A stretch of DNA of 58,930 nt from a virus (taxonomy: Duplodnaviria > Caudoviricetes): the IMG/VR virus record IMGVR_UViG_3300021389_000024, positions 1 to 58,930 of that record, one strand, 5' to 3'. Within the stretch, counting starts at the first letter, position 1, and every line of letters begins with the position of its first letter. The notes beneath the pieces were generated by a model, which saw only the letters and a program-made list of their open reading frames with translations, searched no databases and was not told the DNA's origin. This document shows positions 8,111-53,251 of the stretch, one piece after another. The translations under genes were made by a program, and so were the position numbers.

Positions 8111-10645
8111 TTATCCCTCTAGTGTCTCTATTCTTGATTTTAAATCTTCAATTTCTGTCATAGCTTCTTGTAATGCTTTAATAGCCATAATGTACATTTG
8201 CTGTTCTTTAACACCCTTACGAATTACAGCATCTTGAGCAGCAGTTTTTGTATCACCAACTGAAACGCCTTCTGGTAGATCATCTTCTTCTGTCCATAGA
8301 ACTTCATCCTTTGATTGTACTTTAGTGTGTTCGGTAATTAACTCAGGATTAGTCGTTTCAATTTCCTGTGCTATAACTCCTAATCTTTTATCATCTGAAT
8401 CCTCATCTTCATTATAATGAAACTTTTTAAGTTCCCAAGATTTAACAGAATTCCAAGTGCTTGATAATACTTCTATATTTTTCTTTTCTCTTTCATCACA
8501 AAGATTGGAATTGTTTGATTGATAATTATGTAATCCCCCATTTGATTGTAGAGATGCTTTTTGTCCTGCTGTATCGTTGCAGGTCCAAAATTGAGATTGT
8601 GTATTATTAGGAGCTCCACCATATAGCCAAAAGTTTGCACAGTTTGCATAATAGGTACTACCATTTCTAATAAGTACAGTTGTTAAAGCACCATCATTTG
8701 AATTTATCTCATGATATTTACTTACGCTGTTAAAATACGCTCCACTTGTACTTTTTACTTTCCAAGCACCATGCAAATTAAGACTTGCTCTTTCTGTAGT
8801 TCCATAATAAAACCTCATTGCAGAAGAACCTGCTTGTGCACCTATTCCTATTCCTGCTGTTGCCCCACTTGCTTCAAAATTAATAAGAGGCACATTATCA
8901 GCACCACCTATCTCTAGTTTAGAGCTTGATATTGATGGTGTTCTATTAATTCCAACTCGTCCAGAGCTATCAATTCTCATGCGTTCTGAGCCACCTGTAT
9001 TCAAGGTAACTACATCTCCGCCAATATTCATAGTACGCCATGCAGAGCTTCCTCTGTCATAAGAGTTCATGTTTACAAAACCGCTTGATTCGTTTGGTGT
9101 AACTTCTAAACTTGTTCCATTTGTTCCATCGCCTACAACAAAATTGACTTGAGGAGATAGATTACCAACTCCAATATATCCTGACTCATCTATAACAACT
9201 TTTTCAGTTAATGATGACCTTGCTCCACCGCCTGAAGTAGAAGTGCTGAATGTTAATTTACTTGCACCTACACTTCCTACAGCTATTGATTTAATGCTAG
9301 AAGTAACTCCTGCTGCTGAAGTACCACCATCTTGATCAAAGAAATTAATTGCACCAAATACATCATCAGCAGATACGCTAGACCCTGCTGCATCAAGCAC
9401 TAAGTTAGTTCCGTCAAATCTAAGATTAGCCTCACCCTCTAATGTATTAGCTGTACCACTACCAGTTATGATTCTGTTATCAGCGTTGTTGTTGATGGTA
9501 GTACCACTTACTGTTGAGAACGATAAAGTGCCAGAACCATTTGTAGATAAAACCTGGCCATTAGAACCATCTGCTGCTGGAAGCACCCATATCTTATCTG
9601 CTGATAAGGCAGGAGCTTCAAAGCCTACATAGTTAGACCCCTCATAGAACCTTAGTTCGTTGTTGCTACCACCAACAGATAAGTGACCGCCAGTAGTAAC
9701 ATCACTGGTAAAGGTGACTTTCTCATTAGAGTCAATAGTAATTGCTGTAGCGTCTGCACTTGTGCTAATTGACGTAGCTGATTCTAAAACATCAGACACC
9801 AAAGATTTCTTTAATGCACTATCGGTTGCATCAAAGATCATAAAGTGATCCGCACCTACGGCTGTAACTTGTGTTAAGCCTGACACGAATGATGCTGGTA
9901 GAGTGTTTACATCAGTTTGGGTAAAGGTCATGACCTCTAAGATTGCACCGTTTGCTGGTGCGGTATCCATGGTTAAGGTTGTACCACTTACTGCATAGTC
10001 TGTCTTTTGTTGGTAAACACCATCTAAAAATACTTGTGTATTGTTTTCGTGTATTGGAGAAAGACCAAGCGTAAAAGCTGTAGTGCTTCCATTACAAGTA
10101 AATTGATTGTGAGTTAAATTATTTCCTGAAACTAATGCTGCTACATGATAAACAATAATGTTGCGACTATTAGCAGGTGCAACATCAAATGTAAGTGTGG
10201 TTCCTGAGAGAGTAAAGTCTCCGGGGTTTTGATAAACACCCTCAATAAATACAATTAAGTTATCTTCACTTGCTGGTGCAACGCTTAGTGTAAATGCGGT
10301 TGCACTACCATTACCTGTAAATGTATCAACAGTTAGTGTAGAAGTAACATCGGTCTTAACGTCCTCTAATAAAGCCGCAACTACCCTTAACTCTGCCTTA
10401 TCGCCAGAATTAAAAGCTCGTGCAGTTGTATTATCATGCCCCCGAACCACGGTCAGTGTGTTACCACTTCTTGCTGTTACCTTTACGATCTCCTTGTTGG
10501 TAGTATCATCAAAGGTTACATAGAAGTGATCACTACCTGTTATGGTAGGGAAAACAGAACCATCGGTTACAGCGATGCTCGTGACGCTGCTATTGATTCC
10601 TGCGGCAAGAGTTGTCGCTGCGTTGTTGGTAAACTTAACAGCCAT
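8111..10645 (-). CDS. Tail fibre with C-terminal intramolecular chaperone (peptidase S74-like)
   Basis: MAVKFTNNA...EIVKVTARSGNTLTVVRG attachment domain, two FTGNGSxTAFTL/VFxxGVYQ repeats, ERMRIDSSGRVGI repeats, CDEREKKNI, GVIAQEI, end RIETLEG. Confidence 0.85.
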   Translation of the reverse strand: MAVKFTNNAATTLAAGINSSVTSIAVTDGSVFPTITGSDHFYVTFDDTTNKEIVKVTARSGNTLTVVRGHDNTTARAFNSGDKAELRVVAALLEDVKTDVTSTLTVDTFTGNGSATAFTLSVAPASEDNLIVFIEGVYQNPGDFTLSGTTLTFDVAPANSRNIIVYHVAALVSGNNLTHNQFTCNGSTTAFTLGLSPIHENNTQVFLDGVYQQKTDYAVSGTTLTMDTAPANGAILEVMTFTQTDVNTLPASFVSGLTQVTAVGADHFMIFDATDSALKKSLVSDVLESATSISTSADATAITIDSNEKVTFTSDVTTGGHLSVGGSNNELRFYEGSNYVGFEAPALSADKIWVLPAADGSNGQVLSTNGSGTLSFSTVSGTTINNNADNRIITGSGTANTLEGEANLRFDGTNLVLDAAGSSVSADDVFGAINFFDQDGGTSAAGVTSSIKSIAVGSVGASKLTFSTSTSGGGARSSLTEKVVIDESGYIGVGNLSPQVNFVVGDGTNGTSLEVTPNESSGFVNMNSYDRGSSAWRTMNIGGDVVTLNTGGSERMRIDSSGRVGINRTPSISSSKLEIGGADNVPLINFEASGATAGIGIGAQAGSSAMRFYYGTTERASLNLHGAWKVKSTSGAYFNSVSKYHEINSNDGALTTVLIRNGSTYYANCANFWLYGGAPNNTQSQFWTCNDTAGQKASLQSNGGLHNYQSNNSNLCDEREKKNIEVLSSTWNSVKSWELKKFHYNEDEDSDDKRLGVIAQEIETTNPELITEHTKVQSKDEVLWTEEDDLPEGVSVGDTKTAAQDAVIRKGVKEQQMYIMAIKALQEAMTEIEDLKSRIETLEG

Positions 10646-10663
10646 TAGCTAACTCCTTAAAAA

Positions 10664-11089
10664 TTAACTAACTGTTACAGTCCAAGTAATTGTCATTGAG
10701 TCAGACGCACCCTTATTAACTACTGAAAAAACAGTTCTACAAAGTAAGTCACCGGAAGAAGAGGCATTTAAAATACCCGCTTCAGTCACAGCACCAGTAC
10801 CAGTACCAGCTCCAAAGGTAGCTACGTAAGTCACAACAGCACCCGATACAGTAGTACTTGTTAAAGCAACACGACCTAGTTGATTTCCTAAAGCGGAATC
10901 GCCAGCTGCGGCTGCTGTAGAACCACTACCAATTGCCATGTGAGACATAGCAGTTGCAGTAGCATCTTTCATTCGAGAGGCAACATATTCCTTTCCATCA
11001 GTAACTACAAGGTTATTGACTTCTTGGACTGTTTCTCCGTTAAGGGCAATTTTTAACTTACCTGTAAGTTTTAAACCGTCGTTTAACAT
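10664..11089 (-). CDS. Virion structural protein
   Basis: NLVVTDGK...SHMAIGSG...GTGAVTEAGI...VVNKG...TWTVT pattern seen in phage tail/baseplate proteins. Confidence 0.65.
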   Translation of the reverse strand: MLNDGLKLTGKLKIALNGETVQEVNNLVVTDGKEYVASRMKDATATAMSHMAIGSGSTAAAAGDSALGNQLGRVALTSTTVSGAVVTYVATFGAGTGTGAVTEAGILNASSSGDLLCRTVFSVVNKGASDSMTITWTVTVS

Positions 11090-34327: not shown

Positions 34328-34381
34328 TCAAGCATTCACATCGTATGGGGGGAATCCCCCCATACCCCCCTTAAAGCAAAT

Positions 34382-34407
34382 GTCGACGCAAGGCGTCGGC
34401 TTTTTTT
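34382..34407 (+). terminator. Rho-independent terminator
   Basis: GTCGACGC-AAG-GCGTCGGC followed by T7. Confidence 0.75.
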
Positions 34408-35431: not shown

Positions 35432-35567
35432 CTCTTTTGATTTAAGGCTTTATTAAGTATTTGTTACTACCTAGTTTCAAATTAGCTTTAAATCATTTAA
35501 CCGCATAAGCTCCACTACTTGGGGCTTGTGCATTTTACTAACCATTCTAATAAATATAGGAGTTTAT

Positions 35568-35741
35568 ATGAATGAAATAACCATTGATGAATCTATTCGT
35601 CAACAAGCTAATAACTACAGCTTTATACCTGAGACTATCTCAAGTTTAAAACTACTAGTTATTAATCGTAATCCTACTAGTAAATCAAACCTAGTAGATA
35701 ATATTAATTACTCTCACGCCACAGGAGGTAAACATGAGTAA
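35568..35741 (+). CDS. Hypothetical protein
   Basis: TAGGAG RBS before ATG 35568. Confidence 0.5.
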   Translation: MNEITIDESIRQQANNYSFIPETISSLKLLVINRNPTSKSNLVDNINYSHATGGKHE

Positions 35742-36495
35742 AAGAACTAATCAAACTTTCGTCGATCCAGACGATATCGGTGAGGCTTCACCAATGGAGT
35801 ACAAAACGGAGTCTACTTTAGACGACGCTTCTCCTGATACCAATGGTGATCCAGTAGGTTCTGAAGAAAGAGCCAAACAGGATCCAGTTAAAATGCCTTT
35901 ATGGTATTTTGACAAGTATGATCTTGATGGCAATGGTAAGCCTATCCCAAGCGTTGCACATGTAAATGCTATTATGGATATGCTTCCTCAAAAGATTGAT
36001 ACCGAACCATTCTTTGGTAATGATAAAACAGCAAGTGCAAAGCTTGCTAAGCAATATGACGCTGATGTCAAAGCATTAGTTGATGCGTATCGACCATTGC
36101 TTGCGTATGAGGCTGGTGACACTGGCTTCAACTTCATGATGTTTGCAAATGCTACTTGGGGTAAGTATCTTACTGCTCTTGTAGAATTTGGTAACGATGT
36201 ATCTAGATTCAGTGATCAGGAAATGCCTGACTGGTTAGTTACGCGTGAAGACAATGCATTTGGCATGGGTCGTAAAGCTAGGCTAGTCAGAGATGTCCTT
36301 GCGATTCTTTCTGATGAATTCAAGCTTAAAAATGCTGTCATTACACCAGCCAATGTTAGATCTGCAGTGCAACGCCATTTGCAAGGTTTAGCTACTTGGA
36401 CTTTCAACAAGCATGCTGATTCTAGCGCTAGAGTATCTGGCAAGCTAAATGAGGCTAATGCAGAGTATGTCCAAGGTACATTGGCTTCTATGTAA
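35734..36495 (+). CDS. Hypothetical early protein
   Basis: AGGAGG RBS; 253 aa. Confidence 0.7.
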   Translation: MSKRTNQTFVDPDDIGEASPMEYKTESTLDDASPDTNGDPVGSEERAKQDPVKMPLWYFDKYDLDGNGKPIPSVAHVNAIMDMLPQKIDTEPFFGNDKTASAKLAKQYDADVKALVDAYRPLLAYEAGDTGFNFMMFANATWGKYLTALVEFGNDVSRFSDQEMPDWLVTREDNAFGMGRKARLVRDVLAILSDEFKLKNAVITPANVRSAVQRHLQGLATWTFNKHADSSARVSGKLNEANAEYVQGTLASM

Positions 36496-36499
36496 TAAT

Positions 36500-36723
36500 A
36501 TAGTGGTGGTTGAACGAATCAGAAAGTTCTGCACCACTATTAATGGGATATAAAGGGCTAGGCCAGAACCGATGACCCCTTTATGTCGCCCGTTGTCCGT
36601 GAACCGTTAACCACGTGAAGGTTGCTGACCTAACAGCCATGTAGGGATGAAAAGCCCTACACTTTCTACCCTAGTTAACAACGCTCCCCTGTGCTAGGCA
36701 AGAAATAAAAATAACAGGGGAGC
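36500..36723 (+). ncRNA. Structured intergenic RNA candidate (hairpin cluster)
   Basis: Four long stems; two loops share GCTAGGCMAGAA. Confidence 0.45.
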
Positions 36724-36747
36724 ATTTAATTTCTATAGGAGGAAATT

Positions 36748-37257
36748 ATGGACATTACGTCAAGATACTACTCAGTCAAAGACAGAGTCAGGAGCGCATT
36801 TATATCTAAAACTAATGCTTTATCTAAAAAAATAGAGTATGTAAACGAACGCTTTAGCGTGGTTTTACGCAGTAATAGAAGACTAAAAGAAGATTTAGAT
36901 TACGAAGTTAATCGAGTTGATATTTTAGTTCATGAGTTGTCTCATTTAAAAGATAACTTTCAGCGTCTAATTGGTGAAAACAATTTGCGTCAAACCAATC
37001 AAATTAATGAGGCTGAAATACCCCGCTCTAATTTGCACGACGCTCATGCAATTATTAAGCGTCTAAAAGGAGATATTGATACTGAGTTTTATAACTATTA
37101 CGACAGCATGACTACTCCAGAAGAGCGTAGGTTGTATCATGCTATGCTTTCAGGTGTTAAATCTGCTTGTAATAATCTAGACACTGAAATCAGTGAAATA
37201 AAAAGTGGCAGACAAGATCAACTTGATGACGCTTGGTATGAATCAAGAGACGCTTAA
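36748..37257 (+). CDS. Hypothetical coiled-coil protein
   Basis: AGGAGG RBS; 169 aa. Confidence 0.65.
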   Translation: MDITSRYYSVKDRVRSAFISKTNALSKKIEYVNERFSVVLRSNRRLKEDLDYEVNRVDILVHELSHLKDNFQRLIGENNLRQTNQINEAEIPRSNLHDAHAIIKRLKGDIDTEFYNYYDSMTTPEERRLYHAMLSGVKSACNNLDTEISEIKSGRQDQLDDAWYESRDA

Positions 37258-37335
37258 TTTCTTCTCCCTGGAGAAAACGGTTGGTAGTTATCCGCAAAAC
37301 TACCATATTTTTTTGCAAATAAATAGGAGTTGTGC

Positions 37336-37737
37336 ATGAATGAAGTTAAATATTGTTTTGTTATTGATCCCCAAAAAGAGGAAATCAGAGTTGTAGATCT
37401 GCCTGGCGACAAGCTAGAGCTAGCTACTATTTATGATTTATTGGAGTGTGCTACTTTTGATGTGCACCCATTAACTGCAGATACTGATTTGTTTATTGAT
37501 GATGAAGGATTGCTTGTTGAAGAACAACGATTCTTTAGTATTGACAACAAGGTATTTGCCGGCAACGGTTTAATCGTTGGCGCTGTTAACGAAGAGGGAC
37601 ATTCAACCACCCCTACCTACCCCGATGATTTCTTACCTGTAACTTTTATGCCTAAAAGCTATCAAATGGAAATAACCGCGGATGATTTAAACATTGAAAT
37701 CAGGAGGTCAGATGACACAACATACCAAGAAGCTTGA
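37336..37737 (+). CDS. DUF3846-like protein
   Basis: VIDP...IYDLLEC...DLFIDDEGLL...FAGNGLIVG...EG.S pattern; TAGGAG RBS. Confidence 0.7.
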   Translation: MNEVKYCFVIDPQKEEIRVVDLPGDKLELATIYDLLECATFDVHPLTADTDLFIDDEGLLVEEQRFFSIDNKVFAGNGLIVGAVNEEGHSTTPTYPDDFLPVTFMPKSYQMEITADDLNIEIRRSDDTTYQEA

Positions 37738-37882
37738 ACAACGAAGGAAGGAAATCGAACAAGAAAAAGCTAACAACACAATTGTTCAATGGGAATACCA
37801 AAAGGGTGGGGGGTTACATTTTAGAAAGGTAACTTACGCCAGCGGTAGAGTTGAGACTATTGAGTTTGGAAAAGAAAAGTAA
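37712..37882 (+). CDS. Hypothetical protein
   Basis: AGGAGG RBS before ATG 37712. Confidence 0.6.
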   Translation: MTQHTKKLEQRRKEIEQEKANNTIVQWEYQKGGGLHFRKVTYASGRVETIEFGKEK

Positions 37883-37883
37883 T

Positions 37884-38330
37884 TGACCGGGCGGTCGCAA
37901 GAGCTCACAAACTAGAACAGACATTGCAGCGATTCTATATTAAGCCCCCGATATTACTTTTTTAGGCAAAGGGTTTATTTTATTCCCCTTCATAATATCT
38001 TTGAAGTGCAGGTATTGCCAAAAGCACTTCACTTACAACATGGGTTTTGATTGGTAGTATACAACAAGCAGTCACTGAGTAGCCAACTGCACAAAACCCT
38101 CCTTTTTCGATGCAAGACTGGCAAGGTTAAGCAGTATTCGCCTAGTGATACTGGAAAAAGATAATGAAGCGCCAGCTCTTGTGCTCTTGTAAAGCTTCAT
38201 TATTGCACTAGGCACTATACAAAATTCCTCGCGGGATAGGGGGTTACACCAAAATAGAAATGACTAGCGTGTGTAATCAAATAGTCTAGGCAGGTAGCTC
38301 CTGCAATGTCCATTGTTCCCCCGCTTTTTA
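37884..38330 (+). ncRNA. Array of pseudoknotted RNA modules (ncRNA candidate)
   Basis: ~450 nt without credible ORF; five adjacent modules with closing stems and crossing complementarities. Strand assumed from flanking genes. Confidence 0.6.
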
Positions 38331-38349
38331 ACACACAGGAGGTGTGCTC

Positions 38350-38670
38350 ATGGAAATAGCCAATATTCATATACAAGTATCTGTTGATCCAGAAGAAGTT
38401 GTATGCAGAGAAAATGACTTTACAACTTTAAGTCAAGTTACTAAATATTGTTTAGCTTGGAAAAGTGATGTGCTTGAAGAACAAGATCTTGAAGCTCAAC
38501 TTGTGCATGTTATACGTACTTACAGAGAACACAATCAATTATCTAATAATGTTCCACTACTAGTAGGGGTGTGGTTTGAAACCCCATTTCCAGAACCCCA
38601 AATTGAGTGGGAACCATTATTAAACACACAACCTGATTTACGAGTCATACAAGGAGGTAAAAATGACTAA
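38350..38670 (+). CDS. Hypothetical protein
   Basis: AGGAGG RBS within a hairpin; C-terminal LRVIQGGK motif. Confidence 0.65.
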   Translation: MEIANIHIQVSVDPEEVVCRENDFTTLSQVTKYCLAWKSDVLEEQDLEAQLVHVIRTYREHNQLSNNVPLLVGVWFETPFPEPQIEWEPLLNTQPDLRVIQGGKND

Positions 38671-38851
38671 ACAAATTAAATGGCGTGCTACTTTAAACTA
38701 CAAAAACCAACAAATAACTGTAGAGTTTCAAGCACCGCCTTATGACAAAAACATAAACTACTCACACTTAGCGCGAGTAGAATTTGTACGCATGCTTAGA
38801 AATTATGCATCGCCTTTAAAAATAACCAATGTTGAGCCTGTTGAAAGATAG
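38663..38851 (+). CDS. Hypothetical protein
   Basis: AAGGAGG RBS. Confidence 0.6.
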   Translation: MTKQIKWRATLNYKNQQITVEFQAPPYDKNINYSHLARVEFVRMLRNYASPLKITNVEPVER

Positions 38852-38877
38852 GCTTACTCAAATCTATAGGAGGATTT

Positions 38878-39900
38878 ATGAACAACATTAACCCAAACGA
38901 TCTTAAACAAGAGATCAAAGATAACATCCGTACAGGACTTAACACCATGATATGGGGTGGGCCAGGTATTGGTAAGTCAGATATACCACAACAGGTAGCT
39001 GATGAACTAGATATACCTTTGCTTGACTTTCGTGCCAACTTATTCGACCCAGTCGATGTGCGTGGCATACCTCACATTATGCAAGAACAAGAAACAGGGA
39101 AGCGTTTTACACGTTGGGCAGTGCCTGATGTGTTTCCTATTGCATCACGTGATGGCGAAACGGGAATTCTCTTCATCGACGAATTGCCAACTGCACCACC
39201 AGCTACGCAGAACGCTTTCCTGCAACTCTTGTTAACTCGACAAATTGGCGATTATGAAATGCCAGTTGGCTGGTCAATTGTTGCCGCAGGTAACAGACTG
39301 ACTGACTCAGCTGCTGTATTCCAAATGCCAACACCAGTACGTAATCGTCTATTGCATTACGAACTCGAAGCAAGCATTGATGACTGGGTTGAATGGGCTT
39401 TCAAAAATGGTATTAACTCAGAAGTTATTGGCTTCTTACGTTACAGACCTGGTTTACTTAACAGTTTCAAAGCTGACGAATATGCATTCCCAACACCACG
39501 TTCGTGGGCATTTGTTGACAAAAAGCTAGCCAATCGACCGTCGACCGCCAACGACGATACATTGTTCTTTGGTGTCGCAGCGACAGTCGGCGACGGCCCA
39601 GCTGGCGAGTTTGTTGCTTACAAACAAATAGCTGACAAGCTACAAGATGTCGACGAACTTATCAAAGATCCTGGTAAATACAAGAAAGATGACAACCCAG
39701 CTGTCTTGTATGCACTTTCAACATCTATCGCCACCCGAGCGAGTGATGACACTCTCGAAAATATTATCAAAGTATGCAACAAACTCCCATCAGAGTTCCA
39801 AGTAATACTAATGAAAGGTATTTTTGCAATCAACAAAGACTTTATCAAGAATCAATTTTGTACTAAATGGATTCAAGATAATCACGGCTTATTATCATAG
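38878..39900 (+). CDS. AAA+ ATPase (MoxR/dynein-related type)
   Basis: Walker A GGPGIGKS, Walker B LFIDE, AAGN, PVRNR, FPTPRSW. Confidence 0.9.
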   Translation: MNNINPNDLKQEIKDNIRTGLNTMIWGGPGIGKSDIPQQVADELDIPLLDFRANLFDPVDVRGIPHIMQEQETGKRFTRWAVPDVFPIASRDGETGILFIDELPTAPPATQNAFLQLLLTRQIGDYEMPVGWSIVAAGNRLTDSAAVFQMPTPVRNRLLHYELEASIDDWVEWAFKNGINSEVIGFLRYRPGLLNSFKADEYAFPTPRSWAFVDKKLANRPSTANDDTLFFGVAATVGDGPAGEFVAYKQIADKLQDVDELIKDPGKYKKDDNPAVLYALSTSIATRASDDTLENIIKVCNKLPSEFQVILMKGIFAINKDFIKNQFCTKWIQDNHGLLS

Positions 39901-39909
39901 GAGGTAAAC

Positions 39910-40668
39910 ATGAGCACAGTAAGAATGTCAGATCAACTACAGCGTGATATTGCAAGAGAAGCAATAAACACTTACGACAAAGCAAACCCAGAACGAGAAA
40001 TTCCTTCTGATATGGGTAACAAAATGTATGACAAATATCTAAAACAAAAGCATGAAAACATGCAAACGTTTTTACTTTCTAAAGAAAATGTATCAGTTAT
40101 AGATCCTGCTTATGCAAAAATTAAATCTATATCTTCATTGCGTTTACGAATTGCGTACAGCGATATTGAAGAACAAACTGATTATGATGGCAACGCTACA
40201 ATGGAAATTGTTGACCAACATATGGATTTTAATTTAGATGTATCTAACAGAGAAGTTATGACTTTGTTATCTAAAAACCCTGATGGTTACAATGACCATG
40301 TAACAGTTGCACTTAAAATAGATATTACTGGTAACAACGAAGATGAAAATCCATGTAGAGAACATGTTGATCTTAGTTGTCCTTTAGTTGCTGAATTAGT
40401 TTCTATTCGAGAATACAACGATAAAGTTTATACAGGCGGTAGGCAGTACAAAGAAAAAGTACGAGAAACCATTGCAGCTTTTACAACTTTAAACCAAGCA
40501 CTCAAAGCTTGGCCTGCGCTTAAAGATTTTGTATCTCAATCTAAATTAGACAAAGTTTACGAGAAAGTAGAACGCAAGGCTAAACAACAGCAACAGCGAG
40601 AAGCTATTGAGATACAAGAACAAGAACTTAACTCAGTTATCTTAACTGCATCATTACTAGGAGACTAA
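39910..40668 (+). CDS. Nmad5-like hypothetical protein (paralogue 1)
   Basis: MSTVRMS N-terminus and TTLNQALKAWP motif; paralogue at 42726. Confidence 0.55.
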   Translation: MSTVRMSDQLQRDIAREAINTYDKANPEREIPSDMGNKMYDKYLKQKHENMQTFLLSKENVSVIDPAYAKIKSISSLRLRIAYSDIEEQTDYDGNATMEIVDQHMDFNLDVSNREVMTLLSKNPDGYNDHVTVALKIDITGNNEDENPCREHVDLSCPLVAELVSIREYNDKVYTGGRQYKEKVRETIAAFTTLNQALKAWPALKDFVSQSKLDKVYEKVERKAKQQQQREAIEIQEQELNSVILTASLLGD

Positions 40669-40670
40669 TT

Positions 40671-41045
40671 ATGTTAGAAATAGGCCCACCTAAATACAAC
40701 CAAGGCGACTATGTGCGCATAGACTTTGGCTCTGGTCATTGCAAAGCTATGATCAACAAAGTCAAGCGTAATCGTAGACATGACAAAGATATGCGCGAAG
40801 GACGCGTACATCAATGGCATGCAAGACATAACCCAAACGGTTGGTTTTACGAAGTAGCTAAACATTATGGTACTGGTATAGAAGATGTACCTGATCTACG
40901 TAACGCTCACTGGTCTAGAAACTTAAAACTAGTTATTAGTGAAGCTGAAATTTTTAAACTTATACCTGCTACTAAAGATTTTAAACTTGAACATCTTAGT
41001 GAAGGTATGACTGCAGATACTGAAGTATTAGTAATAAGTAATTAG
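40671..41045 (+). CDS. Hypothetical protein (SH3-like PKYNQGDYV start)
   Basis: TAGGAG RBS; 124 aa. Confidence 0.6.
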   Translation: MLEIGPPKYNQGDYVRIDFGSGHCKAMINKVKRNRRHDKDMREGRVHQWHARHNPNGWFYEVAKHYGTGIEDVPDLRNAHWSRNLKLVISEAEIFKLIPATKDFKLEHLSEGMTADTEVLVISN

Positions 41046-41054
41046 GAGTAACTT

Positions 41055-42152
41055 ATGAGTCAGAATTTTACAAATGCACGCACACAACTTGTGCTCAACC
41101 AGCCATTCTTTGGCACCCTTTGTCTTCGCCTCAAACCCGTTGAACGTGATGACATGGATACGGGTGCCACAGATGGTGTGCATCTTTTCTATAATCCCAA
41201 ATGGTTTGACAAATTGCAACCATTAGAACGTATTGGTTTTCTTGCGCACGAAGTTATGCATGTTGTGCTTATGCACATATTTCGTAGAGAAGAACGTCAA
41301 CCACAAAAGTGGAATGTTGCATGCGACTATGCAGAAAATTATTTACTCAAAGAAGCTAACTTTATATTACCTAAAGGTGCTTTGCTTGATTTGCAATACG
41401 ACAACATGAATGCTGAAGAAATATACAACTTACTTCCTGAGCCCGAAGGTGGCTGGGAATCGTTGGCCGCTGACTTTGGTAATTGTGGCGCTGTGCTTGA
41501 TCATCCTGGCACTGACGACGGTAGCATTGGTAAAGCTAAAGCAGAACTTACTGTTGCAATCAATCAAGCAGCAGAAAGTGCACGCAAAGCTGGCAAGCTA
41601 CCTGGCTCACTAGAATCTATACTTGATGAAATTAAAGAACCCAAAGTATGTTGGAAACAAGTGCTTGCTAGATTCTTGCGTTCTAACAACACAGACGACT
41701 TTAGTTGGCAAAAACCTAATCGCCGTTTTATTGGCCAAGGTTTGTATCTACCTTCTATGTACAATCCATCAGTCGATGAGATTGCAGTTGTGTCTGACAC
41801 ATCAGGTTCTAGAACTGACGAAGAACTAAATCAAGACCTTGCAGAAATTTCTTCTATTATTCTTGATGCCAATCCTACTAAAGTTCACTTTCTAGAAGTT
41901 GATACTGAAGTACAAAATTACACTGAGTACACACGCGAGTCTCTTCCTCTTAAAACTACTATGGTAGGCAGAGGTGGAACTTGTTTCTCACCTGGTATTG
42001 AATACATAAACGAAAATTATCCAAATGTTAGTGCTTTGATCTATCTTACAGATCTTGAATCTAACGACTTTGGAGAACAACCAAATTATCCGGTTTTGTG
42101 GATAACAACTCATGAAGGAGAAGCCCCTTATGGCGAAATCATCAAAATTTGA
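41055..42152 (+). CDS. HExxH metallopeptidase-like + vWA domain protein (DUF2201-like)
   Basis: TGATDG, LAHEVMH, WNVACD, MIDAS DTSGS, GRGGTCF, YLTD; known partner of the upstream AAA+ ATPase. Confidence 0.9.
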   Translation: MSQNFTNARTQLVLNQPFFGTLCLRLKPVERDDMDTGATDGVHLFYNPKWFDKLQPLERIGFLAHEVMHVVLMHIFRREERQPQKWNVACDYAENYLLKEANFILPKGALLDLQYDNMNAEEIYNLLPEPEGGWESLAADFGNCGAVLDHPGTDDGSIGKAKAELTVAINQAAESARKAGKLPGSLESILDEIKEPKVCWKQVLARFLRSNNTDDFSWQKPNRRFIGQGLYLPSMYNPSVDEIAVVSDTSGSRTDEELNQDLAEISSIILDANPTKVHFLEVDTEVQNYTEYTRESLPLKTTMVGRGGTCFSPGIEYINENYPNVSALIYLTDLESNDFGEQPNYPVLWITTHEGEAPYGEIIKI

Positions 42153-42725: not shown

Positions 42726-43568
42726 ATGGCAAGTGTAAGAATGAGTGGTGAACTGCGAGATAAAATTTTTAAGAATTTTGAACAGCAACTTTATAAAGTG
42801 TATGAAAACAATAGTGGTCTGCAAGACTATCTTAAATCTATTCTAGAATCTTTTTATTCAGTTGAAGAACGTCAACTAATGAAAGATTATTTAGATGTGC
42901 ATGAGCGTTTGTTTAGAATGAAATACCCTAAAAAAAATCACGAAGAGTTTTCTCCTAAAAAGTATTTTGGTACTGTTTATGGTAATCGAAATTCAGATTT
43001 TAATTGGGTAAGAGAAGTGCATTTTATTATTAATCCAAATCGTCCAGCTGAAGAATCATTAACTTTTATGGTAGGCGACGATTGGCATGAAGAATATACT
43101 AATTCGTATAATGATAAATTAACACCACCAAGTAAGAATTATGTAACTGGTGATTATTGTTTGACATTAAAGTTAGAAGAACCTATTCAACTTGTACAAC
43201 AACATAATTCTTCTCAAATATGGGCCGCTGAAGGCAGAGTAAGTTCTTTTACAAACCCTATAATTATTTCATCTGATGTAGATGTAGATAATATAGAAAA
43301 GTTTGCTGAAGGCACTATAAAAATTAACGAATCTAAAACTCAAATAAAACATTTATTAGAAAGCTGTACAACACTTAAACGTTTTTTAGATACGTGGCCT
43401 GCAGGTAAAGATTCTGTACCACAAGAATATCTAGATAAAATGTTTGAAACAGCTACACCAGCTACGCCTTCTACTTTACCTAAGTTTGATCCAAATGCTA
43501 TCTTACCTGATGAGGTTAAAGAACAAATGAACAGTACTGTGTTAACTAGTAAATTAATGGAGGGTTAA
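42726..43568 (+). CDS. Nmad5-like hypothetical protein (paralogue 2)
   Basis: GGAGG RBS before ATG 42726; MASVRMS and TTLKRFLDTWP. Confidence 0.55.
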   Translation: MASVRMSGELRDKIFKNFEQQLYKVYENNSGLQDYLKSILESFYSVEERQLMKDYLDVHERLFRMKYPKKNHEEFSPKKYFGTVYGNRNSDFNWVREVHFIINPNRPAEESLTFMVGDDWHEEYTNSYNDKLTPPSKNYVTGDYCLTLKLEEPIQLVQQHNSSQIWAAEGRVSSFTNPIIISSDVDVDNIEKFAEGTIKINESKTQIKHLLESCTTLKRFLDTWPAGKDSVPQEYLDKMFETATPATPSTLPKFDPNAILPDEVKEQMNSTVLTSKLMEG

Positions 43569-43570
43569 TT

Positions 43571-43792
43571 ATGGGAGCTATGAAACGTTGGATGCATGAC
43601 GTGCATGACGATTGTCTATCTATGGGTGTTCGTAACACTGCTAAAAAGTATGACATTTCTGCTGACGATGTTAAAACTGCAACCATGAACCATGTTCAAT
43701 GGAAAAAAACTTGGTCTGAGTTTGTTATTGAAAATGATATAAAACAAACAATGGCTAATGCAAACGAAGCAGCAAAAAAAAGGGGCCTATAA
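43571..43792 (+). CDS. Hypothetical protein
   Basis: GGAGG RBS; 73 aa. Confidence 0.6.
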   Translation: MGAMKRWMHDVHDDCLSMGVRNTAKKYDISADDVKTATMNHVQWKKTWSEFVIENDIKQTMANANEAAKKRGL

Positions 43793-44240: not shown

Positions 44241-44303
44241 TTGTTATATAACACTTAATTGTGTCATACTTAAAAAACATAAAGCATTCAGGATGAATGT
44301 CAA
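44241..44303. promoter_or_regulatory. Overlapping divergent sigma70-like promoters plus CAGGATG hairpin
   Basis: Minus: TTGACA(44303-44298)-16-TATGTT. Plus: TTGTTA(44241)-18-CATACT with TG extension. Hairpin GCATTC-AGGAT-GAATGT at 44284-44300. Confidence 0.45.
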
Positions 44304-44312
44304 CTGTAAATT

Positions 44313-44525
44313 ATGGATAATCGAGTCTACGTAAAACGTAATCCCTTAGCCTATTATCGGTACAACACTCCTGAACATCTTCCCTATATACAGTGGAGAT
44401 TGGTCAGCAAAGGTGTTGCCTACAATATGGTCCACAGTAAACAAGTTGGATGGGAGCGTGCAAAGAAGGGGGAGTATGAGGACTGGTGTGTTCGCATGGA
44501 AAAATTAAGAAAGGAAAACTTATGA
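44313..44525 (+). CDS. Hypothetical protein
   Basis: 70 aa; ATGA overlap with polA. Confidence 0.55.
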   Translation: MDNRVYVKRNPLAYYRYNTPEHLPYIQWRLVSKGVAYNMVHSKQVGWERAKKGEYEDWCVRMEKLRKENL

Positions 44526-46321
44526 ATTTATTATACTTAGACTTTGAAACTTATTACGACGTACAATTGTCCCTGACTAAAATGACAACTGTACAATACG
44601 TTAACCACCCTGATTTTAAAATATGGGGAGTAGGTTTAAAATTTAATGAGGGAAATACAGAGTGGTTTGGAGAAGACCAATACCAAGATGCTCTTGAACA
44701 AATACCCTGGGAAGAAACCGCAGTTGTATGTCACAACACTTTGTTTGATGCTTACATACTTACACAGTACCTGGGCTTTTACCCAGCGTACTACTACGAC
44801 ACCGCCTCCCTGAGTCGGGGCGTGTACCCAAATCAATCTGCACGACTAAAAGATGTAGCTGTCCGTTGTTTTCCAAACGATGAAAGCTTACGTAAAGGAG
44901 AAGAACTTGTTAATGCCAAAGGCATACGTGATTTAGATCCTGACCTCGATGCACAAATTGGTGGCTATTGTATACAAGATGTAGATATAACTTATCAGAT
45001 ATATCACAAAATGATGGAAGGTTATCCACAAACTGAGTTAGATATTATCGATATGACTGTGCGTATGTTTGTAGAACCCAAGCTTATCTTAGATAAAGAA
45101 ATGCTTATTGCACACAAAGAAAAAATTAAACAAGAAACAGCACAGGCAATTGAAGATTCTGGTACAACCCGCGAAATTATGGCTTCGCAACAAAAGTTTG
45201 CACAGTATTTAGAAGAACTTGGCATTACCGTACCAACGAAAAAAAGTCCTACAACAGGCCAACAAATTCCTGCGTTTAGTAAAACTGACTCTGCATATAT
45301 ACAAATGCAAAACATGTATCCTCAATACAAACACCTTTGGGACGGTAGAGAAGCAGTAAAATCACGTATTGAAGAAACTCGCGCACAAAGATTTTTAGAA
45401 AGCACTAACCCTGATGGCACTTTTTCTGTACCGTTACGTTATTACGCAGCACACACTGGCCGTTTTGGTGGTACAGAAAGTATTAATTTACAAAACTTAC
45501 CCAGAGGATCTGCATTACGTACAGCAGTTATGGCTCCTGAAGGACAACAACTATATGTTGTAGATTTATCAAACATCGAAGCTCGCATGCTTGCGTGGTT
45601 AGCTAAAGAAGCTGACTTACTTGATGCATTTGCAGCTGGGCGTGACGTATACAGTGAGTTTGCATCTCAAATATATGGTAGACCTGTAACAAAAGCTGAC
45701 AAATTAGAACGTTACGTAGGTAAGACCGCTATTTTAGGTTTAGGTTATGGCATGGGCCCTGATAAATTTAGAGACACTCTTAAAAATGGGTCACCATCTG
45801 TTGATGTAGGAGAAAGTACAGCTATATCAATTGTTGCCCAGTACCGTGCTATGTACCCAAATATCCCCAGGCTTTGGAATGCATGCAAACAAGCACTATT
45901 TACAATGCGCCACACAGGTAACCCAGAAGGGCGACCGTATGGACCCCTGATTATTAAACCAGGTTGCATACAACTACCTAATGATATGTTCTTAAAATAT
46001 CCAGAACTAGATTTTATTGATGGTAATTTTATGTACAACTCAGGTAAAACAATGGTAAAAACGTATGGTGCAAGACTAACAGAAAACATTGTACAAGCTC
46101 TGGCCCGTATAGTTATTGTAGAACAAATGTTAGAAGTACAAGCTATGCCTGAAGTTCAAGTTGTTTTGCAAGTACACGATGAAATTATATCAATTGGATC
46201 TAATGTAGATTGTGACAAGACACTAGATAAAATACTAGCTATAATGAAAACACCTCCTTTTTGGTGTTCAGATTTACCACTAGATGCTGAAGGGGGATAC
46301 AGCCAACGATATGACAAATGA
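44522..46321 (+). CDS. polA: DNA polymerase family A with 3'-5' exonuclease
   Basis: Exo I DFETY, HNTLFD, YCIQD; TGRFGG, NLQNLP, motif A DLSNIEAR, motif B RYVGKTAILGLGYG, motif C VHDE. Confidence 0.95.
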   Translation: MNLLYLDFETYYDVQLSLTKMTTVQYVNHPDFKIWGVGLKFNEGNTEWFGEDQYQDALEQIPWEETAVVCHNTLFDAYILTQYLGFYPAYYYDTASLSRGVYPNQSARLKDVAVRCFPNDESLRKGEELVNAKGIRDLDPDLDAQIGGYCIQDVDITYQIYHKMMEGYPQTELDIIDMTVRMFVEPKLILDKEMLIAHKEKIKQETAQAIEDSGTTREIMASQQKFAQYLEELGITVPTKKSPTTGQQIPAFSKTDSAYIQMQNMYPQYKHLWDGREAVKSRIEETRAQRFLESTNPDGTFSVPLRYYAAHTGRFGGTESINLQNLPRGSALRTAVMAPEGQQLYVVDLSNIEARMLAWLAKEADLLDAFAAGRDVYSEFASQIYGRPVTKADKLERYVGKTAILGLGYGMGPDKFRDTLKNGSPSVDVGESTAISIVAQYRAMYPNIPRLWNACKQALFTMRHTGNPEGRPYGPLIIKPGCIQLPNDMFLKYPELDFIDGNFMYNSGKTMVKTYGARLTENIVQALARIVIVEQMLEVQAMPEVQVVLQVHDEIISIGSNVDCDKTLDKILAIMKTPPFWCSDLPLDAEGGYSQRYDK

Positions 46322-46503
46322 GCAATCTAGTATTAACAAGACGGAAACATGACTCAATAGTTTTACACCAGGATGGTGAAGAACTATGTGTTATTACCGT
46401 TACTGCATTAGGACCTAAGCAAACTAAGCTAGCTTTTAATGCAAAAGAGTCTGTTAAAATAGATAGACACGAAGTATACGAAGCTAAACAAGCTAACAAT
46501 TAA
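46318..46503 (+). CDS. csrA: CsrA/RsmA-family RNA-binding translational regulator
   Basis: 61 aa; LVLTRR...SIVL...ITV...QTKLAFNA.ESVKIDRHEVY aligns with CsrA LILTRR...[20 protein letters not shown], including the Arg44 equivalent. Confidence 0.8.
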   Translation: MSNLVLTRRKHDSIVLHQDGEELCVITVTALGPKQTKLAFNAKESVKIDRHEVYEAKQANN

Positions 46504-46515
46504 TCGGAGAATTAT

Positions 46516-48972
46516 ATGGAATTAGTTTTCTTAAAAGCAAAGCAACGCCTTGCAAAAGAAATATCAAACAAAGGTACTACACCTTACCCACTTACTAAAA
46601 ACTTTACATCTGAACATGTACAAGTATCTAAAACTAAAAAAGGTTTACACACTTTATTAAAAACTTTACAAACCCAAGCAGCATCTGGTGCTTGTTTGCA
46701 TAAAGGTTTGTTAAAACGCCCACTTGAAAACGAATCACGAGCTATGATGGCTGACCGTGTAGCGTCAACAGAGTTATTAGTTCTTGATATAGATGGTATA
46801 CAAATGCCAGGCAGCCTGACAGATGTACGCACAGTAGCAGAAAAAATAATTGCACAACTACCAGAGTGTTTTCAAGATGTAAGTTATATAGCCCAAGCAA
46901 GTGCATCTTTAGGATTTAAAAAAGATAAAGTATCTATGCACTTTTTCTTTTTATTAGATCAACCCACCCAACCTAAAATACTAAAAGAATGGTTTAAATT
47001 ATTAAATTACGAAACAGACATCTTGTCATCTCAACTGTCTTTGTCTGCAAACGGACAAAGCTTATCTTACAAATTAGACCCCAGTGTTGCTGAAAATTCT
47101 AAAATAATTTATATAGCACCACCTACTTTTAAAGATAACATACAAGATCCCATCTCATCAGATAGGTTTGTACTAGTCGAACGTGGTTCGGTAACCATAG
47201 ATCCTAGACCCTTGTTAGTTCATGTTAACCCAGAACGCGTACATAACTTAGGCGTTCAGGTTAAAGATGGACTGCGTAAAAAACTTAATTTACCTAAAAA
47301 AACAAGCAAACTAAGCACTGTAAGCATTGGGGGAGAAGCACAAGAAGTGTTACAAAACCCAGACAAAATGACTATTGAAATATCAAGAGTTAATGAACCC
47401 TATGTTAACTGTAATGTTAACGGAGGCGACAGCAACGGCTACTACTTTGTATTAACTAACCCCCATTACATGTACAACTTTAAAGGCGAACCTGTATGGG
47501 AGATACAAAAAGCCGACCCAGATTTTTATCGAAACATATTTGAAATTTTTGCAGATAAAATTGATAAAGATAAAAAAATAAAACCAGTCGCATTACGTGA
47601 CTTTTACACTGACACTTACTATAACGGAATATACGATGAAACAACCCAACAATTTACCAACGACTACCCCCTCACGCCCACCAATAAGCAGTCTATTGAT
47701 GACTTTATGCGCTCTCATAATCGCCCTTCCTTGGATTACATTCCTGATGCTAGGGTCGTATTTGATCCAAGCAATAACAAAGGTATTGAGTTAGACGAAG
47801 CTCCTTACTACGTAAACTTGTATAGAAAAACTGAGTACATGTTAAAACAAGAAGAACATGTATCGGAGTTAACTTACGGGGGAGCTGAAAAATTACACAC
47901 AATAACACCACACATAGCACAGCTTTTGATGCATGTATTGGGTAATGGTAAAACTGAGTTTGAACACTTTATTAATTGGTTAGCTTATATTTATCAAAAC
48001 AAAAACAAAGCTATGACTGCTTGGATATTTACAGGCGTACCTGGAACTGGCAAGGGCTTATTTGTACACAAAGTACTTAAACCTTTATTTGGTGAACAAC
48101 AAACACCAATGCGAGCTTTAGAAAACATTGAAGAACAATTCAACTTGTACATGAGAACAGCACTCTTTTTAGTAGTAGATGAATTTAGAATGGGAGACGC
48201 AGGTAGCATAGGTAAAATGGCTGACAAACTTAAACACCAAATTACTGAACCCAACCTAACTATTCGTGCAATGCGTTCTAATCAAATAGAACTACCTAGC
48301 TTTTGTAACTTTTTGTTTTTAACTAATAGAGCAGACGCAGTCAAAATAGAGGAAGGCGATCGGCGTTACAACGTAGCCCCACGCCAAGAAGTAAAGCTAG
48401 AAAATGCTAACGCAGATCTTATTAACAATATGGATAAACTTGAACAAGAACTTTATATATTTGCTGGTGTGTTAAACAAGTTCCAAGTAGATCAGCGTAT
48501 GGCTCATACAGCTTTAGAAAATGAAGCTAAAATACAAATGAAAAACATTTCAATGTCTGTACTTGAAGAATTTGCAGCTGCAGTACGACAACGCAACCTT
48601 GAATATTTTACAGAAGTATTAGATATACCTCTTACAAATACTTTTGATGCTGGAGGTATTAGTACAGCACAAAGATACCTTAAGTATTGGATAGCAGAAG
48701 TAGGTAATGAAATAATTATACCTATGTCTCAGTTTAAATTAGTGTATGACATACTTACTGACAGTCGTAACAAATTATCTACAAGAGACTTTACAAAAGC
48801 TATGTCTAGGTTAAATATTAAAACTTCTAGAAAACGTGTAAGTGCAGATAAAAATGCCTCTATACCTAGAGGGGTTGTATTAACTTGGAAATTAGACGAC
48901 AATATTCGTAATTCTTTAATTAAAGAACATTTTGAAGATAGAGATAATTTACTATTACAAAAAACTAGCTAG
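46516..48972 (+). CDS. Primase-helicase (prim-pol-like N-terminus, SF3/DUF5906-like helicase C-terminus)
   Basis: LVLDIDG and SMHFFF; Walker A GVPGTGKG, VVDE, FLTN, DRRY. Confidence 0.8.
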   Translation: MELVFLKAKQRLAKEISNKGTTPYPLTKNFTSEHVQVSKTKKGLHTLLKTLQTQAASGACLHKGLLKRPLENESRAMMADRVASTELLVLDIDGIQMPGSLTDVRTVAEKIIAQLPECFQDVSYIAQASASLGFKKDKVSMHFFFLLDQPTQPKILKEWFKLLNYETDILSSQLSLSANGQSLSYKLDPSVAENSKIIYIAPPTFKDNIQDPISSDRFVLVERGSVTIDPRPLLVHVNPERVHNLGVQVKDGLRKKLNLPKKTSKLSTVSIGGEAQEVLQNPDKMTIEISRVNEPYVNCNVNGGDSNGYYFVLTNPHYMYNFKGEPVWEIQKADPDFYRNIFEIFADKIDKDKKIKPVALRDFYTDTYYNGIYDETTQQFTNDYPLTPTNKQSIDDFMRSHNRPSLDYIPDARVVFDPSNNKGIELDEAPYYVNLYRKTEYMLKQEEHVSELTYGGAEKLHTITPHIAQLLMHVLGNGKTEFEHFINWLAYIYQNKNKAMTAWIFTGVPGTGKGLFVHKVLKPLFGEQQTPMRALENIEEQFNLYMRTALFLVVDEFRMGDAGSIGKMADKLKHQITEPNLTIRAMRSNQIELPSFCNFLFLTNRADAVKIEEGDRRYNVAPRQEVKLENANADLINNMDKLEQELYIFAGVLNKFQVDQRMAHTALENEAKIQMKNISMSVLEEFAAAVRQRNLEYFTEVLDIPLTNTFDAGGISTAQRYLKYWIAEVGNEIIIPMSQFKLVYDILTDSRNKLSTRDFTKAMSRLNIKTSRKRVSADKNASIPRGVVLTWKLDDNIRNSLIKEHFEDRDNLLLQKTS

Positions 48973-48988
48973 GAAGGCTATATAACAA

Positions 48989-52683: not shown

Positions 52684-53035
52684 AGAAATTTATAAGTGGA
52701 AAATCAACGACCCATATCATGGGGGTGTTCCTGACGCATTCTACTCCGGCCCTGGCGGCTTTTGTTTTGTAGAATATAAATATGTGCAATCCTTACCTGA
52801 CCGTGGTACGTCGAAAGTACCCATCAATCTTTCTCAACAACAACGCCTCTGGATCCAGCGGGCGCACACACATAAATTACCCGCGTACATAGTCCTGGGA
52901 TATCCAGACGGTGTTTGTATAACAGACAACCCACTAGCAGAATTTTTTTATTTAGATTGCTTTTTAAGGTGTGCCGTGACTTTTGAAGCATATATCGATA
53001 GAATAAGCAACATATGTTTAACTATTAAGGAGTAA
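52637..53035 (+). CDS. VRR-NUC-like / Holliday junction resolvase nuclease
   Basis: EKDF, GGVPD, FVEYK, LSQQQRLW. Confidence 0.8.
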   Translation: MKEKDFINKIHKKLPKEIYKWKINDPYHGGVPDAFYSGPGGFCFVEYKYVQSLPDRGTSKVPINLSQQQRLWIQRAHTHKLPAYIVLGYPDGVCITDNPLAEFFYLDCFLRCAVTFEAYIDRISNICLTIKE

Positions 53036-53038
53036 TAG

Positions 53039-53251
53039 ATGGATATGGTAAATCAACCACCTCATTATAATCAAGGTGGTATTGAGTGCATTGACGGAAT
53101 AGAAGCAAGCATGAGCAAGGAAGCGTTTGCTGGTTACTGTAAAGGCAATGTTATAAAGTATTTGTGGCGTTACGAGTATAAGAACAAAGTTGAGGACTTA
53201 AAAAAAGCTCAATGGTACTTAGACAGACTCGTTAAGTCGCAGGAGGAGTAA
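53039..53251 (+). CDS. DUF3310 (SaV-like) protein
   Basis: DMVNQPPHY..GGIECID...GNVIKYLWR...EDLKKAQWYL. Confidence 0.9.
   Translation: MDMVNQPPHYNQGGIECIDGIEASMSKEAFAGYCKGNVIKYLWRYEYKNKVEDLKKAQWYLDRLVKSQEE

Follow-up and report, generated by a model that had tools for sequence, protein, structure and literature searches.

GGA-loop hairpins under selection at ribosome-binding sites in a family of marine podophages with a core csrA gene

Proteins of the CsrA/RsmE family bind a GGA displayed in a hairpin loop over the Shine-Dalgarno site and in this way block initiation, as is widely held and as the accessible part of PMC4894983 describes. Homologues of CsrA and RsmA are also found in phages and plasmids, and in the available portions of two reports an action on the host is proposed for them (Campa et al. 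2021, PMC8450108; Sobrero and Valverde 2020, PMC7366521). The accessible text of the former describes the phage copies as highly similar to bacterial ones. According to the available portion of PMC11879866, the role of a phage CsrA in the phage cycle was first tested in 2025, when knock-down of gp28, the csrA gene of phage PTXU04, reduced plaque size. The accessible parts of PMC8450108, PMC7366521 and PMC11879866 name no phage targets of a phage CsrA, and a literature search confined to main texts, themselves available in part, yielded no report in which a phage CsrA acts on structured start sites in the phage's own genome. Here we describe hairpins that hold the GGA of the Shine-Dalgarno site in their loops at gene starts of IMG/VR virus record IMGVR_UViG_3300021389_000024. 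This complete virus record of 58,930 bases, called the window below, comes from an uncultured marine podophage that encodes a CsrA homologue of its own.

The phage hairpins share with CsrA/RsmA/RsmE sites a GGA in a short apical loop that overlaps the ribosome-binding site (RBS), and a CsrA-family protein is encoded in the same genome. They differ in that the loop of four window sites is AUAGGA, closed by a U.G pair, with the GGA at positions 4-6, and in that the sites are single, with no second GGA nearby. Unlike the CsrA/RsmA/RsmE systems with their sponge RNAs, the window has no sponge-like cluster, and the putative regulator and its targets would both be viral. RNA thermometers resemble the phage hairpins in that a weak, AU-rich stem extends over the spacer and some of the Shine-Dalgarno bases. 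Thermometers of the fourU and ROSE types, however, pair the Shine-Dalgarno bases themselves, whereas the phage hairpins keep the GGA unpaired in the loop. As with phage-borne CsrA elsewhere, the protein is a small CsrA-family member; the phage copies discussed in the available part of PMC8450108 are bacterial-like, whereas the one described here has marine relatives only, and PTXU04 lacks the hairpin excess reported below. The T4 RegB/RegA system, in which a phage factor ends early translation at GGAG, follows the same logic as the early-to-middle switch put forward in the original prediction. RegB, however, cleaves single-stranded GGAGRAYARAA with the help of S1 and is resisted by structure (PMC1702504, accessible part), whereas the sites here are hairpins and no RegB or RegA homologue accompanies them.

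Five hairpins had been proposed at start sites of the window, and all five lie at their coordinates and pair as described. Four further places, named as weaker cases (35718, 37315, 38643 and 41035), were in no case scored as such a hairpin, and two of them fold with the start codon in the stem. The sites are as follows, the last four being additions to the original prediction, with free energies (dG) in kcal/mol and with ORF standing for open reading frame.

35550..35567, plus strand: hairpin, 6 bp stem, AUAGGA hexaloop, U.G closing pair, dG -0.2; RBS of small ORF 35568-35741
36727..36748, plus strand: hairpin, 8 bp stem, AUAGGA hexaloop, dG -4.2, stem probability 0.79; RBS of ORF 36748-37257
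37323..37329, plus strand: ATAGGAG RBS with no stable hairpin in the window (+2.9 kcal/mol); DUF3846 gene 37336-37737
38332..38346, plus strand: hairpin, 5 bp stem CACAC/GUGUG, AGGAG pentaloop, dG -4.3; RBS of ORF 38350-38670
38860..38877, plus strand: hairpin, 6 bp stem, AUAGGA hexaloop, dG -2.0, stem probability 0.75; RBS of the MoxR-like AAA ATPase gene
39892..39907, plus strand: hairpin, 5 bp stem, AUAGGA hexaloop, dG -0.7 to -0.8, stem probability 0.86; RBS of Nmad5-like gene 39910-40668
43552..43570, plus strand: hairpin, 7 bp stem, GGAGG loop, dG -1.4; RBS of ORF 43571-43792; absent from the original prediction
48966..48980, plus strand: hairpin, 5 bp stem, AGGAA loop, dG -3.2, context probability 0.15; RBS of PD-(D/E)XK nuclease gene 48989-49744
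53022..53038, plus strand: hairpin, 6 bp stem, AGGAG loop, dG -1.3, stem probability 0.74; RBS of DUF3310 gene 53039-53251
10644..10672, minus strand: late-gene hairpin, 10 bp stem, 9 nt loop ending AAGGA, dG -5.7; RBS of tail-fibre-like gene 8111-10645

The sites share an anatomy in which (N)AGGA(G) occupies the loop and the 3' arm consists of the end of the Shine-Dalgarno site together with the entire spacer up to the ATG. Loop and 3' arm together cover AGGAGG and the spacer, and the stems stop 0-3 nt short of the ATG. That GGA stands in a short hairpin loop at these sites is seen in the predicted folds and in covariation. The four AUAGGA stems are the dominant local fold at 37 C, with mean pair probabilities of 0.71-0.86 in a context of 30 nt upstream and 25 nt downstream. 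The five hairpins first proposed, whose stems are weak at 37 C, reach -3.0 to -8.3 kcal/mol at 15 C, so that stability rises by 3-4 kcal/mol between the two temperatures.

Covariation carries the case for these structures. Related loci were gathered by searches of viral and metagenome collections with the ATPase protein (163 loci, 61-99% identity). For the clade of the window, we took each distinct start-site core with ATAGGA 3-12 nt before an ATG, whether paired or not (n = 25). At least four contiguous pairs flank the exact hexaloop in 18 of these 25 sites, where 1.0 would be expected, and nine different stems surround the one loop; the 25 rows include close orthologues and are not independent events, and the nine distinct stems are the safer count. 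The rows align without gaps, and 75.3% of their cells are paired, compared with 53.4 +/- 3.1% after shuffling. The covariation score is 0.561 against 0.210, and by neither measure was any of 500 shuffles as high; sliding the partners against each other gives 35-57% paired. Both sides have changed at five of the six stem pairs (CG, UA, AU and UG are the pair types), and next to the closing pair, 24 of 25 rows form a pair, four pair types being represented. A U.G pair closes the loop in 18 of 25 sites. Since it would be A.C on the opposite strand, the fold must be viewed as a feature of the sense RNA and not as a DNA palindrome. In other clades hexaloop pairing is seen at 7 of 105 ATAGGA sites, with 4.1 expected. 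Because pairing so far exceeds expectation, with nine stems around one loop and covariation above all shuffles, the hairpins are, by this comparative evidence, a real and selected RNA structure. The proposal that the stems differ in sequence yet pair, while the loop stays constant, is thereby borne out.

Individual sites show the same pattern. The 35550 hairpin (stem probability 0.71; dG -3.0 at 15 C) differs from the orthologous site of relatives at four stem pairs, with both sides changed at each. In the 36727 hairpin, whose final stem base is the A of the ATG, all 22 nt are unchanged in loci where the encoded protein is just 33-34% identical. The DUF3846 gene has in relatives a 6 bp stem enclosing the ATAGGA loop. 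At 38860 the clade has 14 distinct upstream contexts, which vary in the nine bases immediately 5' of the hairpin but not in its 18 nt, and in the 39892 loop the TAG (39898-39900) doubles as the stop codon of the ATPase gene. The cassette at 38332 is kept in 24 of the 32 distinct upstream contexts listed, distant clades included; relatives show one both-sided change, and one clade has the canonical AAGGAG loop. In longer context the 38332 stem has a pair probability of only 0.02, an upstream C-run fold over the Shine-Dalgarno site being the winner. This C-run and a UCCAU (38309-38356), upstream of ORF 38350, can pair with the Shine-Dalgarno site and the AUGGA, hiding both. Relatives conserve the small hairpin but not the competing fold. 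Genes 36748 and 38350 of the window both begin AUGGA. The 43552 hairpin has a stem probability of 0.21 in context and is missing from some close relatives, and the nuclease gene with the 48966 hairpin lies downstream of csrA.

Within the window, ATAGGAG occurs seven times on the plus strand, and the five occurrences that are start sites all lie within 35.5-40 kb. It stands before 5 of 11 gene starts at 35.5-41.1 kb (35568, 36748, 37336, 38878 and 39910) and before none of 63 elsewhere (Fisher p 3e-5). With a null in which the flanks were shuffled and every GGA retained, hairpins of dG <= 0 are found at 5 of the 11 starts of this region against 1.9-2.0 expected (P 0.014 and 0.025, for a region chosen post hoc), and at 13 of all 74 hand-called genes against 6.9 (P 0.015). 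By strand, the hand-called genes give 9/35 on plus (4.0 expected) and 4/39 on minus (3.2 expected). An automatic start-site caller finds 10/50 in the window alone, not significantly above the 7.0-7.3 expected, and 5/26 against 2.3 on the plus strand (P 0.05). GGA-loop hairpins at dG <= -2 are scattered over the window, 38 on the plus and 35 on the minus strand, and the long intergenic stretches hold no sponge-like cluster of them.

The family as a whole was examined with one automatic caller, a null that shuffles each flank separately, and a threshold of dG <= -1. The 22 representative loci, from which 4 of 26 cluster representatives shorter than 9 kb were left out, count each 22-nt core once. 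The five complete relatives were read in three unjoined pieces, with loss of ORFs at piece ends, and the sequences used for G004 and G005 stop 1.2 kb and 0.45 kb short of the end; each control genome contributed 50 kb. Observed and expected hairpins at Shine-Dalgarno sites were as follows.

22 representative loci: 74/429 (17.2%) observed, 45.2 expected
Five complete relatives: 50/243 observed, 25.9 expected
Four csrA-less N4-like phages (VBP47, pYD6-A, 1.026.O, XC38), GC 38-44%: 16/232 observed, 20.6 expected
KPP25, csrA-less, nearest cultured relative by portal: 15/73 observed, 13.5 expected
Acidovorax phage AP1, csrA-less: 10/91 observed, 21.6 expected

The six csrA-less phages together have 41/396 against 55.7 expected, and the family differs from them with Fisher p 1e-4 and 4e-4. 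Unconstrained minimum free energy (MFE) folds agree. The Shine-Dalgarno GGA falls in a hairpin loop at 33.6% of family sites and 25.1% of their shuffles, and at 15.4% of sites and 21.2% of shuffles in the four N4-like phages; this test requires a GGA at least 3 nt before the start, which kept 595/632, 214/232 and 50/54 sites, the last set being that of PTXU04. The excess of the family lies in loops of 5-6 nt (56 against 22.9 expected). It is found in the ANGGAN hexaloop (20 against 7.1), NNGGAN (35 against 20.1) and the NGGAN pentaloop (40 against 20.3), and the family has none in NNGGA, GGANNN or NGGANN. The six csrA-less phages have no register excess (ANGGAN 2 against 2.7, NGGAN 9 against 8.9).

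Two genes of the plus strand bring in the candidate reader.

44522..46321, plus strand: family A DNA polymerase gene, to whose stop csrA is translationally coupled
46318..46503, plus strand: csrA homologue, 61 aa, Pfam PF02599, PHROG 9500

That the phage encodes a CsrA homologue, as the original prediction had it, is confirmed. The protein scores 39.3 bits against PF02599 (cut-off 27), residues 4-58 falling on profile positions 2-52 of 53, and a genome search gives 37.8 bits; PHROG 9500 is annotated as a CsrA-like regulator. It aligns over its full length with the solved CsrA/RsmE chains 5DMB, 2BTI, 5Z38, 1Y00 and 2JPP, with a 4-residue insertion in an early turn. The conserved RNA-binding stretches of CsrA, in which mutagenesis has located critical residues, are an N-terminal L-x-L-T-R-R and a C-terminal V-x-I/V-x-R-x-E-I/V-Y. 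In the phage protein, LVLTRR and V-K-I-D-R-H-E-V-Y align with those of the solved proteins, and all 31 distinct family sequences retain both stretches, with R/K allowed at one position. These come from the 36 of 163 loci whose match extends from the end of the polymerase to the start of the primase; csrA lies between polymerase and primase in all 36, and we found no csrA-less member among the relatives. The ATG of csrA overlaps the polymerase stop (ATGA, 46315-46321) and has no Shine-Dalgarno site of its own, which is so in most clades, the remainder having GGAGG within the polymerase 3' end. Because of this coupling to the DNA polymerase gene, CsrA production belongs to the replication operon. 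All 66 hits among 5.8 billion proteins searched with CsrA are short proteins on marine contigs, its own relatives, and tblastn against a phage collection found no match at E <= 0.001; at E <= 10 it gave three rows of chance level. The phage CsrA belongs to a private clade. A small hairpin with an AGGAU loop (46366-46378, dG -3.4) lies within the csrA coding sequence; it is probably not conserved, since the protein differs here in other clades.

CsrA is the candidate reader of the hairpins because it is the only recognisable RNA-binding regulator, belongs to the family core, and is made with the polymerase. Indeed, a Pfam scan of 59 window proteins recognised no other RNA-binding regulator. A hairpin loop of 5-6 nt displays the GGA core of the Shine-Dalgarno site, while the last G or Gs of that site and the whole spacer pair with a complementary upstream arm. 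The hairpins would be binding sites for the phage's own CsrA, produced from the replication operon. The 30S subunit must presumably melt the stem; a CsrA dimer bound at the loop would stabilise it and exclude the subunit, and the marked genes would be translated less as CsrA accumulates. The AUAGGA version tags early and nucleotide-metabolism genes at 35.5-40 kb in the window clade, and the penta- and hexaloop versions across the family about one fifth of genes, late ones too. We infer binding, the direction of the effect and its timing. The family-wide excess in loop registers that CsrA prefers supports such control, which we hold to be plausible, if tentatively. The fuller proposal, of a core CsrA governing the phage's own messages with a private AUAGGA code for early and nucleotide-metabolism genes, seems to us possible but doubtful.

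Several results weigh against control by CsrA. The canonical ANGGAN register, with GGA at positions 3-5, is not found at the five proposed sites of the window, four of which have AUAGGA and the fifth AGGAG; the departure from ANGGAN had itself been pointed out correctly. The stems of these sites are weak (-0.2 to -4.3 kcal/mol at 37 C). The registers enriched in the family are equally expected of a hairpin that merely displays AGGAG, and so do not separate CsrA from a role in cis. The excess, about 1.6- to 2-fold over shuffles, comes from family counts that are not phylogenetically independent. Well-studied CsrA targets usually have two or more GGA sites, and near 110 hairpin sites, compared with 521 other sites, we found no enrichment of an additional GGA or A(N)GGA at -70..-31 or +4..+40 (0.45 against 0.45; 0.32 against 0.35). 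The E. coli phage PTXU04, in which the presence of csrA was verified, has no excess by stem count (6/54 against 7.8 expected) or by MFE (12% against 20.3% in shuffles). Finally, hairpins in the five complete relatives are as frequent on the late (portal) strand, 22/116, as on the early strand, 28/127 (Fisher p 0.63), and a general property of the mRNAs would explain this no less well than a regulon would.

This last result also bears on the scope that had been proposed, a regulon shutting off early genes alone. A comparison of early and late sites on shuffled controls shows a contrast in the window that is gone in the five complete relatives. The observation that most late RBSs lack the hairpin likewise describes the window, where minus-strand genes stand close to expectation, and fails in those relatives. 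Only the window, and in its clade the ATAGGA version, shows the early-late contrast, and even the window set includes the AAA ATPase, Nmad5-like and nuclease genes. What stands of the CsrA regulon is that csrA is real and core and that the hairpins are selected and overlap the Shine-Dalgarno site; an early-only scope finds no support. Should CsrA be the reader, a broad translational governor with a clade-specific early set is better supported than an early-to-middle switch.

The alternative that survives best is that the hairpins act in cis, displaying and shielding the Shine-Dalgarno core, with a weak stem that tunes translation, possibly in a temperature-dependent way, while CsrA serves elsewhere, for example on host mRNAs. 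The excess on early- and late-strand genes alike, the absence of an enriched second GGA site, and a csrA-positive phage, PTXU04, without the feature are all as it would have them. The enriched loops are the exact Shine-Dalgarno core, AGGAG or NAGGAG, and the 3-4 kcal/mol that the stems gain at 15 C would be gained at a plausible sea temperature. Host manipulation is also what the authors on phage CsrA propose, in the available part of PMC8450108. On the other side, the six other phages have no excess, and four of them are at or below expectation at dG <= -1. The usual pressure therefore disfavours structure at start sites, and something specific to the family must favour it; the sole family with the excess also has a core csrA. 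An invariant AUAGGA loop on varying stems, moreover, resembles a recognition element rather than a display device. We regard a purely cis-acting role as rather unlikely on balance.

A reader in trans other than the phage CsrA could be the host CsrA, an unrecognised early phage protein, or an endoribonuclease acting or blocked at the Shine-Dalgarno site. Families could not be assigned to most early proteins of the window, which leaves room for such a protein, and T4 RegB is a precedent for the shut-off of early mRNA at GGAG (PMC1702504, accessible part). But among the 59 proteins scanned we found no RegB or RegA homologue, and according to the same available text RegB requires 11 nt of single-stranded GGAGRAYARAA and structured sites are resistant, whereas here the 3' flank is paired. 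Another reader in trans is in our judgement improbable.

The hairpins might instead be conserved RBS cassettes spread by recombination at gene boundaries, the complementarity of their flanks being incidental to AT-rich sequence. The same 18-22 nt do stand before genes with unrelated upstream flanks, at mosaic junctions, and in metatranscriptome contigs of relatives 36673-37336 is missing and the join falls exactly at an RBS cassette. TATAGGAGG is common at two genes of other clades that lack hexaloop pairing (the 7/105 sites against 4.1 expected), and at one site the TAG is the upstream stop codon. Recombination, however, cannot produce nine stems around one loop, at 18/25 sites against 1.0 expected, nor both-sided changes at 5/6 pairs, and the shuffled and slid controls never reach the observed pairing. 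AT-rich control phages, too, show no excess. It is very improbable that cassette spread alone accounts for the pairing.

That the sites form the transcription-start portion of promoters recognised by a single-subunit phage RNA polymerase is scarcely credible: its only point is that ACACTATAGGAG of the relatives recalls what we take to be the -7 to +5 part of T7/SP6-type promoters, whereas the nine columns upstream of the loop vary where promoters of the T7 type require conservation from -17 to -5, the scan of 59 proteins turned up no RNA polymerase family, a 685-aa protein matched viral hypothetical clusters only, and the flank covariation would be left unexplained.

Two further candidates were considered. 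A DNA operator is unlikely, the arms differing among sites and the U.G pairs being strand-specific. A target of the T4 RegB type is likewise unlikely, in view of the paired 3' flank and of the scan of 59 proteins, which gave no RegB family match.

Phage csrA genes have already been catalogued; the present case joins a core csrA to selected structure at start sites across a family of abundant marine phages, and the hairpins provide a concrete set of candidate viral CsrA targets. If the proposal is right, this would be the first phage-encoded CsrA with a viral regulon, and with a shifted loop register that could privatise recognition, and CsrA would join phage translational timers such as T4 RegA/RegB. 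Should the link to CsrA fail, start sites selected for structure would still be unusual, other phages showing none.

The window carries on its minus strand (1-33.2 kb) the terminase, P22-like portal, capsid, 2,489-aa virion protein and tail-fibre genes, and on its plus strand (33.4-53.5 kb) first small early ORFs and then a replication block. The block includes the DUF3846 gene, the MoxR-like AAA ATPase (38878-39900), the Nmad5-like gene, a DUF2201/VWA gene, the family A DNA polymerase, csrA, a primase-helicase, the PD-(D/E)XK nuclease and a SNF2 helicase. A near-identity DNA search of a phage collection with the window gave no match, and a close cultured relative is absent from it; the proteins nearest to the portal, about 40% identical, are from Pseudomonas phage KPP25 and related phages. 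Scanning the window for Rfam families and tRNAs gave no matches. In a search of sequencing runs, marine DNA runs and two metatranscriptome runs held about 30% of the words; these were used as contigs, which carry no information on transcript ends, strand or level, and coverage was not used. The 685-aa protein (53970-56030, minus strand) belongs to no Pfam or PHROG family, and an Atlas search matched it to viral hypothetical clusters only. PHROG matches to the 2,489-aa virion protein (12958-20427, minus strand) are C-terminal only, and PTXU04 likewise encodes a very large protein, of 2,198 aa, with no role assigned.

The early region also contains GC-rich stem-loops on the plus strand, at 35503-35531, 36687-36725, 37282-37305 and 34382-34400, three of them with T-runs. 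The start sites at 35550, 36727 and 37323 each have such a stem-loop 20-35 nt upstream, and for this reason the region looks like a string of cassettes, each made of a stem-loop, a start-site hairpin and a small gene. Terminator-like sites at 33.0-41.2 kb number 24, with 5.8 expected, and a sigma-70 promoter scan of the same interval gave 19 matches, no enrichment over the 22.2 expected. A perfect 23-nt palindrome at 34343-34365, probably a bidirectional terminator, has G/C-rich arms of 8 bp and a dG of -12.1 whichever strand is folded; it shares bases with the end of a doubtful 44-aa ORF.

A stretch of 467 nt at 37883-38349 has no coding-strand ORF, and the fold of 37883-38360 is no better than that of shuffles (z -1.09). 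Relatives have contigs in which parts of this stretch are missing or exchanged, with joints at 38029-38213 and 38215-38327. The cassette that follows (T-run, ACAC-type arm, AGGAGG, GTGTGCT, ATG) recurs in loci L001, L004, L012 and others, before the DUF3846 gene and before orthologues of 38350. It thus precedes different genes and follows unrelated upstream sequence, and it is through such a cassette that metatranscriptome contigs join 36673 to 37336. Gene cassettes seem to be exchanged at these RBS-cassette sites. At 44284-44300, a 6 bp hairpin with an AGGAU loop lies some 13 nt ahead of ORF 44313, whose start offers no other Shine-Dalgarno site; in one clade the stem is kept and the loop is AAGAA.

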